Virus record (IMG/VR): IMGVR_UViG_3300032144_000005
DNA from: a virus
Length of the DNA: 64,000 nucleotides
Strand: one strand, 5' to 3'
The notes under the pieces are model-generated. The model was not told where the DNA came from. It was given only the letters and a program-made list of their open reading frames with translations, and ran no database searches. Below are positions 24,511-58,070 of this stretch, piece after piece. The first letter of the stretch is position 1. Every line of letters begins with the position of its first letter. The position numbers were made by a program, and so were the translations under genes.

Positions 24511-24546
24511 GTCAAAACAAAACCCCAGCCCTTTCGAGCTGGGGTT
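24511..24546 (-). terminator. Intrinsic terminator after major capsid gene
   Basis: Minus strand AACCCCAGC-TCGAAAGG-GCTGGGGTT followed by TTGTTTT. Confidence 0.85.
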
Positions 24547-24597
24547 CTATGCCGAGACCGACGCAGCCGTGACACTGCGTAAGTATCGAAGGTTGGT

Positions 24598-26311: not shown

Positions 26312-26349
26312 AAAAAGAAAACACCCTCAACGATTTACCGTTGAGGGTG
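26312..26349 (-). terminator. Intrinsic terminator between scaffold and capsid genes
   Basis: 11-bp stem CACCCTCAACG/CGTTGAGGGTG followed on the minus strand by TTTTCTTTTT. Confidence 0.8.
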
Positions 26350-26388
26350 CCTTTCCGTTATGAGCTAACACTGACGAACAGGTGTTCG

Positions 26389-45206: not shown

Positions 45207-45243
45207 AAAAATAAGGCGGGCGCCCCCTTTCGAGGGCGCCCGC
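45207..45243 (-). terminator. Intrinsic terminator between Ubl and E2 genes
   Basis: GCGGGCGCCC-TCGAAAGG-GGGCGCCCGC followed by CTTATTTTT. Confidence 0.85.
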
Positions 45244-52276: not shown

Positions 52277-52313
52277 AAAAAGAAACCCCGCCACGCACGA
52301 GGCATGGCGGGGT
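52277..52313 (-). terminator. Intrinsic terminator in early gene cluster
   Basis: ACCCCGCCA...TGGCGGGGT stem followed by TTCTTTTT on the minus strand. Confidence 0.8.
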
Positions 52314-52344
52314 CGGTGCTATGATGACCAAAGCGGACTGAGCA

Positions 52345-56187: not shown

Positions 56188-56523
56188 TCAGGGCTGGCGG
56201 TAGAGGGTGGTGCCGCGCATGAGGATGGCGTTGAGTCGATTCGAGATGTCGACGACCTCCATCGGGTCCGCGCCCGCCTGCTTCTGCTCGGGCGTGTGCA
56301 CGGGTGCCGTGATGCCGCTGGGTGCGGCGACGATCTCGGGCATGATGATGGGCACGAGCTTGTCGGTGTCGACGGGCGTGAACTTGTGCACGGGCATCTT
56401 CACGTCGCGCGGGCGCTTGGCACCCGTGGTGGCGGTCGACCAAGCCGACACGTCGCCGAAGCGGACTTCTTTCGTGTTGAGCACTTCGTGCTCGGGATAT
56501 TTCCAGCGATGGTTGTGGGCCAT
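56188..56523 (-). CDS. Hypothetical protein, first gene of the early cluster
   Basis: MAHNHRWKY. Confidence 0.55.
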   Translation of the reverse strand: MAHNHRWKYPEHEVLNTKEVRFGDVSAWSTATTGAKRPRDVKMPVHKFTPVDTDKLVPIIMPEIVAAPSGITAPVHTPEQKQAGADPMEVVDISNRLNAILMRGTTLYRQP

Positions 56524-56560
56524 GGGCTCAATGTGGACAGGTGCGGGATTGCACCCGGAC

Positions 56561-56709
56561 ACAACAAAGCCCCGGACCTTGGGAGATCCGGGGCTGGAAT
56601 GATCGCGCGACTAGAAGCCATGTCGTCGCGCTTGGCGCGCGGTTCATCCGTATGAACGCGCGTTCCCCGACGGGCTAGGTCGGGTGAGCAAAGTTAGATA
56701 GCACTTTGC
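56561..56709 (-). ncRNA. Candidate structured ncRNA/leader: five consecutive hairpins ending in a terminator
   Basis: Stems at 56688-56709, 56666-56684, 56636-56662, 56605-56631 and 56568-56595 (followed by TTGTTGT on minus); intergenic. Confidence 0.45.
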
Positions 56710-57115
56710 GGGCTGCGATGCGGTGAATACTCGAAGCTGTCTCCGATTCACTGGCACACGGTTTGGTAAGGCTGTCCGAGAACCTTCTTGCATGGACCCG
56801 CTTGTCTGGGTCCGACGTCAAAATTCTTCACGCGCAAAACTCCTTTTGGGACGTGTTGCGAACGCAAGTTGCCTTCAGCTTTGTCATGCTCCGCGCGACC
56901 TTCATTTCCGTCCCATACAGTCACCGCACTTCGCTTCGCCCAAACAGGACAAAGCTCCGCACGGGAGATATGGTTTTTTACTCGGTTTAATCCACGTCCC
57001 GCTAGGCAGGAATTGCTGTGGCATTATTTGTCGCGCTCGATTTGCGCACACGTCGTTTCAAGTTTTGAACGGAGACCCGCTTTCCGGCGGACTCAAACGG
57101 CACGTTTTTCCCTAT

Positions 57116-57268
57116 GGAGCACAGCTCCGCCTAGCACAGCTAGGACTTGGGCAAACGGGCAGGACACGGCGCAACCTTGCGCCCGAAAACCTGCATCATA
57201 CGGCATCGCCCCCCGTCCGCCTCACAAATCGCACTATGGGACCAGCCCACCGCGCACAGCGCGGACTT
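57116..57268. repeat. Three hairpins sharing a GC-ACA-GC triloop with different stems
   Basis: GGAGC-ACA-GCTCC (57116-57128), CCTAGC-ACA-GCTAGG (57130-57144) and CCGCGC-ACA-GCGCGG (57250-57264); the last two are followed by ACTT. Confidence 0.8.
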
Positions 57269-57330
57269 CGCACGAAACCAAGGGAAAGGACAGGGTGGAA
57301 AAAGACACCGCGAATCAAAGAACAGCGTAG

Positions 57331-57358
57331 GGGAACCCCTCAGAAGAGAGGGGTTCCC
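57331..57358. other. Strong hairpin downstream of the 116-aa gene (terminator-like, weak U-tract)
   Basis: GGGAACCCCTC-AGAAGA-GAGGGGTTCCC, 11-bp stem. Confidence 0.65.
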
Positions 57359-57370
57359 GTGGCGCTGTCC

Positions 57371-57721
57371 TCAGAGGCGCGCGGCAGCGTAGGTGGCCGC
57401 CATCTTCACGCGCTCGGAGTGCGAGAGCGAGACGGCGCCCGACTTGGACACGCTCGCGCCATACGTCTCCGTGACCGCGAGACCGGCGTTGCGCGCAGCG
57501 ATGAAGAAGTGCTTCTTCTGCTTGCGCTCGGAATCCCAGAGGTTCATCGCCTCCTTGTACTCCTCCTTGGTCTCGTAGTCGCCGGACTTGGGCTTGGGTC
57601 CGGTCAGCTCCGCGATTTGGTAAATCGCGTTGCGGATTCCGGCGACGTCCCCGGCGTTAATCGCCTCGATGCCAGAGGCAACGGCGGCTTCGACAGGGGT
57701 CTGGATGGTGGTTGTGGACAT
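57371..57721 (-). CDS. Stand-alone hypothetical protein in the control region
   Basis: MSTTTIQTPV; good codon bias; isolated by hairpins. Confidence 0.7.
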   Translation of the reverse strand: MSTTTIQTPVEAAVASGIEAINAGDVAGIRNAIYQIAELTGPKPKSGDYETKEEYKEAMNLWDSERKQKKHFFIAARNAGLAVTETYGASVSKSGAVSLSHSERVKMAATYAAARL

Positions 57722-58070
57722 GGCATTTGCTGGACTAGTCACCCCCTGAGAGAGGGGGGTCAGAAGCGGTCTGACGGCCTGCCGGAACGTCCGGCATCAT
57801 CAGGCCGTTGCTAGCTTGTGACTTATTCCCCCCTCTAGGGTGGCACCTAAAACCGGGGGGAAAGGACAGCCGGGGGGAGGGGGAAACGCGCAACAGCCTC
57901 GCTGAGAGAGAGATAAGCTGGCTCGCGAAGTTCTGGCCACCGCTGGCGAGGTCTGGACCCGGTTTCCGGGCTCCATTGGGTCTGTCCGGCCCCTATTCTG
58001 GGGTGGCATCTCAAACTGGGGGTGGTTTCCGGCATCTCGTCAAGCCTTCTGGGACGAAACGCGCAACTCT

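Follow-up and report, generated by a model that had tools for sequence, protein, structure and literature searches.

Three short hairpins with the same loop lie close together in a gene-free part of a phage-like contig, and the question that they raise is what could read them, and in which form of the nucleic acid. The window analyzed here, a stretch of 64,000 nucleotides, belongs to a 62%-GC phage-like contig from soil metagenomes, the parent contig being of ~73 kb in public records, with about 9 kb of it falling outside the window. The window includes tail-fibre, portal-like, and virion genes (an 827-aa protein has the portal look), a 2967-aa ART-PolyVal polyvalent protein and an integrase, as well as a replication module made up of an HNH endonuclease, an O-like initiator, and a DnaC-like loader. 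Nothing similar to the hairpin region was found among the INPHARED phages with megablast and blastn. All the genes near the hairpins and below position 57721 lie on the minus strand, so that on the sense strand the loops read UGU and an AAGU stands ahead of each unit. The hairpins and the repeats that contain them are the following:

57116-57128, minus strand: hairpin H1 (hairpin a, unit 2), GGAGC-ACA-GCTCC on the plus strand and GGAGC-UGU-GCUCC in the sense, 1 nt after H2
57130-57144, minus strand: hairpin H2 (hairpin b, unit 2), CCTAGC-ACA-GCTAGG on the plus strand and AAGU-CCUAGC-UGU-GCUAGG in the sense
57237-57249, minus strand: degenerate partner hairpin a' (unit 1), UGGG-CUGGU-CCCA in the sense and TGGG-accag-CCCA on the plus strand, which aligns with H1
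57250-57264, minus strand: hairpin H3 (hairpin b, unit 1), CCGCGC-ACA-GCGCGG on the plus strand and AAGU-CCGCGC-UGU-GCGCGG in the sense
57111-57175, minus strand: repeat unit A, on the plus strand CTATGG, H1, H2, ACTT, and then a GGGnAnGGACA box
57233-57301, minus strand: repeat unit B, containing the 12-mer GGGAAAGGACAG at 57282-57293

The sequences and coordinates of the three hairpins, as well as the ACTT that follows H2 and H3 on the plus strand, were as described in the original prediction. All the stems are perfect, of 5-6 bp around GC-ACA-GC, and, unlike intrinsic terminators, they are not accompanied by a U tract on either strand. H3, the counterpart of the b hairpins of the relatives described below, forms a perfect 6-bp stem plus triloop with an RNA fold energy of -9.5 kcal/mol, and the degenerate hairpin a' showed a fold energy of -3.0 kcal/mol and a mean base-pair probability of 0.88. 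The heptamer GCACAGC is present in 10 copies in the window versus 17 expected, and only three of these 10 are embedded in hairpins, all of them inside 150 nt. A search of the window detected these three GC-ACA-GC hairpins only (57116-57264), with no comparable site outside the cluster, the module being single-copy per window. Three triloop hairpins of the same core within 200 nt appeared in none of 200 dinucleotide-preserving shuffles of the window (192 of them gave one and eight gave two). The original prediction had also spoken of fully covarying stems, which is not the case within this genome, where covariation is modest: H2 and H3 differ at two of six pairs, both compensated, and H1 and H2 show two compensated pairs and have three inner pairs in common. 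Covariation became strong once the relatives were added.

Hairpins H1 to H3 are parts of a duplicated unit of about 65-70 nt, and the local alignment of unit A with unit B scored 44, compared with 18 +/- 3.6 for shuffled sequence. The 12-mer GGGAAAGGACAG, which has a weaker copy in unit A (57158-57170), may be a box of an operator or promoter, although it was not apparent in the relatives. The possibility of each unit being a three-way junction with a closing helix was discarded, as it was no better than in shuffled flanks. Among DNA strain variants, the hairpin region was unchanged where covered, and the neighbouring 116-aa gene differed by ~7%.

The gap that houses the hairpins and the elements that bound it, together with the other terminators of the window, are as follows:

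57371-57721, minus strand: 116-aa gene, upstream of the module
56524-57370, minus strand: gene-free gap (leader/ncRNA region), 847 nt, with no gene in public calls
57317-57372, upper stem 57331-57358, minus strand: T1, a long hairpin in two parts, located immediately 3' of the 116-aa stop codon, with UUCUUUGAUU as its U-rich tail
56560-56595, stem 56568-56595, minus strand: T2, a canonical intrinsic terminator with a 12-bp stem and then UUUGUUGU
56540-56555, minus strand: small hairpin after T2, GGUGC-AAUCCC-GCACC
56188-56523, minus strand: 111-aa gene, downstream of the module
52284-52314, 45216-45243, 26320-26351, and 24520-24547, minus strand: another four strong intrinsic terminators (12-bp stems, U tracts), located at operon ends of the coding strand

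The hairpins had been predicted to lie in a gene-free stretch, and this was borne out by the public gene calls, which leave 56524-57370 empty, and by the codon positions, as no frame of the gap has the high GC3 typical of real genes. Folding of the gap gave z-scores of -5.7 for the minus strand and -4.0 for the plus strand with respect to shuffled sequence. Rfam returned nothing at gathering score in the gap or in the relatives, with chance-level matches only, up to E = 10; the covariance models of the Y RNA/YrlA, tRNA, tmRNA, 6S, and c4 families gave no match in the gap or the relatives, and ARAGORN detected no tRNA or tmRNA in this gap or in those of the relatives. No promoter was recognized in the gap, including those of the sigma-70 type. 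Outside the window, about 9-10 kb past 57721, the contig has genes for a Ro60/TROVE protein that includes a vWA domain and for a second VWA protein, in addition to those for Acb2/Tad1 and Lar. A phage with a Ro60 should also have a partner RNA similar to Y RNA, and the Rfam models gave no match to one in 56524-57370.

The base-pair probability of T1 was 1.00, and a T1-like hairpin with a T-rich tail was found 3' of the homologous gene in every relative. The coding strand of the window has only five strong terminators with a U tail, T2 among them, and the presence of canonical terminators at four further operon ends indicates that the host uses them. T2 is conserved and covarying in five of the five gaps compared, with G-U pairs on the sense strand that correspond to A-C mismatches on the opposite one. 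Its end is 45 nt ahead of the ATG of the 111-aa gene, so that the early genes need either read-through or a very compact promoter. The small hairpin that follows T2 is the counterpart of a covarying AGUGCYC...GCACUG hairpin of the relatives; each of the five gaps carries such a second covarying hairpin between T2 and the next gene, in addition to conserved 3' sequence blocks.

A boxA-like sequence, UGUUCUUUGA/TGTTCTTTGA, was found once in the window (57315-57324, minus strand), resembling the rrn/nut boxA consensuses (GYTCTTTAANA or UGCUCUUUAACA; PMC5725501, PMC13753749), a boxA being expected only a few nt away from its hairpin. Its TGTTCTTTGA form lies ~50 nt upstream of H3 and constitutes the tail of the T1 hairpin, and the boxA reading of UGUUCUUUGA was downgraded, as it is probably just the U-tail of the extended T1 hairpin. 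The relative L055 carries GUUCCUUUGAC at the place equivalent to UGUUCUUUGA.

In two soil metatranscriptome libraries, contigs within a 2-kb stretch matched only the 116-aa gene (57367-57760); this evidence consists of contigs, is weak, and says nothing on the absence of transcription of the gap, although it is consistent with T1 stopping most transcription in the sampled conditions. The same contigs are compatible with a prophage-expressed gene that is stopped at T1.

The comparison with relatives was based on a sample of five lineages and one divergent subfamily, all of them metagenomic. Record L052 corresponds to the same phage (99.98% identity) and thus supplies no covariation. Four further lineages (L053/L054, L055, L056, and L057, the latter taken from a 65.9-kb contig) presented a homologue of the 116-aa gene, a gene-free gap of 794-877 nt, and then small genes. 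With the window included, the gaps are pairwise 41-55% identical, and the order of the module is a 116-aa-type gene, T1, a C/U-rich spacer, two tandem twin-hairpin units, ~500 nt partly conserved, T2, the small hairpin, a 111-aa-type gene, and many small early genes in a row. Each gap of the relatives contains two pairs of adjacent triloop hairpins located 89-275 nt past the stop codon, with 5-7-bp stems and C-(N)GU-G triloops, the loops being CGU, UGU, or, rarely, AGU or GGU. Examples are CCGUGC-CGU-GCACGG, CUAGGC-CGU-GCCUAG, CUCGGC-UGU-GCCGAG, and GCAAC-UGU-GUUGC, as well as the pair CCACGC-CGU-GCGUGG, followed directly by UGCGGAC-CGU-GUCCGCA; the stem of H2 is also present in L057. The twin-hairpin unit is 29-40 nt long and consists of AARY, hairpin b, 0-10 nt, hairpin a, and a purine-rich RAGUA-like tail. 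The distant subfamily (L058, L059) showed a longer gap, without clean twin NGU hairpins.

Alignment A3, with 19 hairpins, showed loop positions 2-3 to be invariant (G and T/U), the closing pair to be C-G in 17 of the 18 distinct rows, and double changes at all six of the six stem pairs. In this alignment, 94% of the cells were paired versus 58% in shuffles, with a covariation score of 0.95 versus 0.22 (0 of 500 shuffles), although the hairpins had been chosen by a perfect-stem scan, so that the pairing percentage is partly circular, whereas the statistics of loop and orientation are not. Because of this choice, a loop-blind test was added, in which perfect triloop hairpins of at least 5 bp were taken: within the five gaps, NGT was found on the sense strand in 17 of 29 hairpins and in the reverse orientation in none of the 29, compared with 10 of 170 outside the gaps (Fisher p = 1.4e-10). 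The evidence from G-U versus A-C pairs inside the hairpins is balanced (2 vs. 2), so that within the hairpins the active strand and its chemistry, RNA or DNA, are not proven thereby. The original prediction had taken the covariation as a sign of selection for structure, to be dropped if relatives conserved neither loop nor pairing. Both are kept in the relatives, as the four other lineages retain G-T at loop positions 2-3 and the C-G closing pair on different stems at the same place, and the claim stands.

Further scans were carried out on public contigs. The tandem GCACAGC hairpin pattern gave chance non-hairpin matches only in IMG/VR and in a collection of JGI metagenome contigs that does not include L052, and patterns for the T2 region of the relatives gave 0 matches in contigs from viruses and from genomes. 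In the relatives, the module was found downstream of a DUF5906 primase-helicase and a small DPBB_1 protein (L053:264-2378, L056:476-2626, L057:494-2659), and in the window it lies beside the O/DnaC-type replication module; these different neighbours indicate that the hairpin module travels independently of replication genes. In addition, T-arm-like hairpins were observed in the gaps of relatives: GAGGG-UUUGAAU-CCCUC (L056:4556-4572), GGGGAUCAAAUCCCC, and GGGUUCAAAUCCC, the sites being at about 216-230 of the L057 gap and at about 322-336 and 628-640 of the L059 gap, with GGGUUCAAAUCCC in L059. No equivalent of these was seen in the gap of the window.

Regarding the flanking proteins, the 116-aa protein belongs to a small phage protein family, with homologues P0017-P0020, P0022, and P0023, which are small proteins of metagenomic phages at 28-38% identity, found by an exhaustive HMMER search; two other HMMER matches, P0016 and P0021, were discarded as low-complexity artefacts (a mucin-like protein and a DUF11 repeat protein). 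A word-indexed protein search detected no homologues of the 116-aa or 111-aa proteins. The AF2 model of the 116-aa protein consists of three helices and a beta hairpin (pLDDT 76), and structure searches with it gave generic helical-bundle matches only, with nothing usable from the ESM Atlas. The 111-aa proteins are 25-32% identical across the relatives (alignment A5), which share the motif RFGxISxWAxATTxAKRP; the protein is predicted to be mostly disordered (AF2 pLDDT 54, two short helices), and no homology, including to lambda N, and no arginine-rich motif were detected in it. Sequence and structure searches revealed no RNA-binding or antiterminator fold in either flanking protein, and the neighbouring proteins in the relatives showed no Pfam domain, ANTAR included. 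Locus searches of IMG/VR with single proteins (116-aa, 111-aa, initiator, DnaC-like, and 126-aa) gave nothing useful, and their sole match, L025, was rejected as an unrelated 39%-GC contig. Upstream, where the 116-aa gene and the replication operon diverge, a 26-nt direct repeat (57834-57859 and 57997-58022, 85% identical) containing GGTGGCAYCT-AAAC-GGGGG was noted as a candidate operator pair.

The 116-aa protein family and the hairpin module co-occur in five lineages, each with a 111-aa-type gene after T2. A link between the hairpins and the adjacent 116-aa protein, the binding of which the original prediction had suggested testing, gains support from this co-occurrence and may be considered a candidate interaction.

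A fixed loop and closing pair on freely covarying stems, in a fixed orientation and position, point to a single-stranded hairpin read by a sequence-specific factor. In turn, the conserved sense-strand terminators that frame the element, and its placement ahead of the early genes with T2 next to the first of them, point to a leader RNA by which read-through is controlled. We tentatively favour, by analogy with nut and put and at somewhat less than even odds, that the hairpins could be recognition sites for a protein or for RNA polymerase in an early-leader RNA governing the read-through of a terminator. In this scheme, transcription of the conserved untranslated region that precedes the early genes would give a minus-strand (sense) RNA carrying the recognition hairpins, and this RNA, rather than single-stranded DNA, would be the active form. 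On the nascent RNA, the invariable loops of the twin hairpins would be bound by a protein, either RNA polymerase itself or one of the small proteins conserved with the module, and the elongation complex would thereby resist T2, with the result that the early genes would be switched on as in lambda N/nut, HK022 put, and Tn916 canT. Antitermination was one of the functions that the original prediction had listed, along with packaging and ejection, for which no support was found. Against antitermination, the hairpins lie >450 nt upstream of T2 and downstream of T1, in a gap without a recognized promoter, and the soil RNA contigs lie only on the 116-aa gene. It is also conceivable, if rather doubtful, that the two ORFan proteins and the ~750-850-nt RNA between them make up a self-contained and undescribed phage device, which could be a ribonucleoprotein or else a system of processive antitermination that depends on a protein, with the twin hairpins docking the 116-aa- or the 111-aa-type protein.

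The strong structure of the gap (z = -5.7), its conserved length and 3' sequence blocks, and the absence of any Rfam family match would also suit a separate gene for a non-coding RNA of ~700-800 nt, starting past T1 and ending at T2, with a role other than antitermination. Such an RNA could join both flanking proteins in a ribonucleoprotein, serve as a decoy or in anti-defence, or be the precursor of small RNAs, with the twin hairpins as protein-binding or processing sites; it would have its own strong terminator in T2 and two dedicated conserved ORFan genes at its flanks. The T-arm-like hairpins in the gaps of several relatives (L056, and L059 with GGGUUCAAAUCCC) and the Ro60/TROVE protein encoded elsewhere on the contig go in the same direction, as bacterial Ro60 partners are tRNA-like Y RNAs (PMC4201824). 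However, the Y-RNA, tRNA, and tmRNA models were silent, and Ro60 is ~9 kb away across an operon of the opposite strand, whereas the known YrlA genes are within 4 kb of Ro60 (PMC4201824). Moreover, no promoter was identified and none of the RNA contigs fell on the gap, and a leader is the better fit for a region that opens the early operon and has T2 next to the first gene. We consider this alternative possible but doubtful.

The two remaining alternatives place the signal in DNA. That the hairpins act as single-stranded DNA or extruded cruciforms, either as N4-style promoters for an unrecognized polymerase or as priming or replication signals, seems unlikely to us, even if their architecture is that of the N4 early promoters, in which a GC-rich heptamer is centred on a 3-nt loop within variable inverted repeats that only need to pair (PMC4496689). 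The N4 rule (purine at -11, G at -10, and G at -8, with the start ~11 nt from the loop centre) does not hold for the loop on the plus strand, the template of the local genes, which is A-C-A or A-C-G with C at its centre; read on the sense strand, both the loop centre and the base matching -8 are G, but that at -10 is C or T (Y), in place of the required G. Taking the sense strand as template would, in addition, send transcription backwards into the 116-aa gene, against T1 and T2. Searches of the 2967-aa protein and other large proteins of the window for a phage RNA polymerase in PHROGs, Pfam, and PDB sequences gave only ART-PolyVal, virion-structural, tail-fibre, and portal-like signals, with no RNA-polymerase domain detected, and the loop is not a GNA/GNNA extra-stable DNA mini-hairpin (PMC13037366). 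The DUF5906 primase-helicase near the module in the relatives would fit a replication signal, but the module is kept beside differing replication modules, O/DnaC-like here and DUF5906 there. The analogy to N4-type hairpin promoters that had been drawn from the sequence is not supported, given that no polymerase domain was detected in the large proteins of the window, and given the misfit of the template-strand loop bases, and the conserved, covarying sense-strand terminators that frame the element. Very unlikely, in our opinion, is that the repeat units are control sites in double-stranded DNA, such as operators or elements of an early-left promoter, with a secondary role for the hairpin potential. 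The unit does reach past the hairpins to the GGGnAnGGACA box, the box 12-mer GGGAAAGGACAG of unit B recurs exactly at 57858-57869 in the divergent promoter region, and TGTCC was counted by eye ~5 times on the sense strand of the gap; yet a dimer that binds duplex DNA reads half-sites, and here it is the half-sites that vary while remaining complementary, with only the centre being fixed. Furthermore, the GGACA box is not evident in the relatives, and no sigma-70-type promoter was found. Inspection by eye for CsrA-type GGA motifs, sigma-54 promoters, end hairpins of the IS200/IS605 type, CRISPR-repeat mimicry, and an antisense scheme of the P1 c4 / P4 CI type gave no specific match.

If the early-leader reading is true, the module would represent a new family of phage regulatory RNA, in which twin triloop hairpins go together with a long conserved leader and a dedicated pair of small proteins, and another case of a terminator-insulated mobile-element operon opened by an RNA element. 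The source phages are uncultured, high-GC phages of soil, whose early regions otherwise consist of ORFans only, so the module would provide an entry point to early gene control in such phages, with a short and well-defined RNA-protein recognition pair that could be tested with oligonucleotides. The rule for the hairpins (adjacent pairs, each hairpin with C-NGU-G and a 5-7-bp stem) lends itself, by its simplicity, to searches elsewhere.

None of the closest known systems fits the module by its defining features, although they share part of them. The N4 early promoters have in common with it a GC-rich heptamer on a 3-nt loop, a 5-7-bp stem with non-conserved bases that are only required to pair, clustered copies, and a location upstream of early genes (PMC4496689). 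They differ in the -11 purine/-10 G rule, which fails here on the template strand, and in that the element described here is framed by RNA terminators of the sense strand, the polarity of which is opposite to an N4-type reading of this strand and argues against its membership. The RNAs read by ANTAR antiterminators are likewise built of small hairpins side by side, two per site, in which stems covary and certain loop positions are conserved (PMC3369931, PMC8934654), but they have hexaloops, and their second hairpin competes or overlaps with the terminator, in contrast to the triloops found here, located >450 nt from T2 and without an ANTAR domain in the neighbourhood.

Like lambda nut, the module would present short RNA hairpins, of 13-15 nt and with an unvarying loop, in the leader of the early-left transcript of a temperate phage and upstream of a terminator to be passed. 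In both systems the gene of a small, apparently disordered protein adjoins the site, the lambda N protein being largely disordered. Nevertheless, the triloop (N)GU replaces the GNRA-like pentaloop of boxB, the hairpins come in adjacent pairs, in two tandem units per transcript and with stems that differ within one genome, there is no convincing boxA, and the candidate proteins show no similarity to N. In addition, the site described here follows a terminator, and about 450 nt separate it from the next.

Finally, put and canT are cis-acting RNAs of two stem-loops that make RNA polymerase resistant to terminators. The two stem-loops of put are located downstream of early promoters (PMC9378689), and canT overrides the insulating terminators of the mobile element Tn916 (PMC11658703). 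Compared with HK022 put, which is ~70 nt long with long irregular stems and a triplex, the units described here are of 29-40 nt and have two plain hairpins of 5-7 bp. The put RNA binds to the zinc-binding domain of the RNA polymerase beta' subunit without a protein factor, whereas the plain hairpins with sequence-specific triloops found in these soil phages suggest a protein reader.
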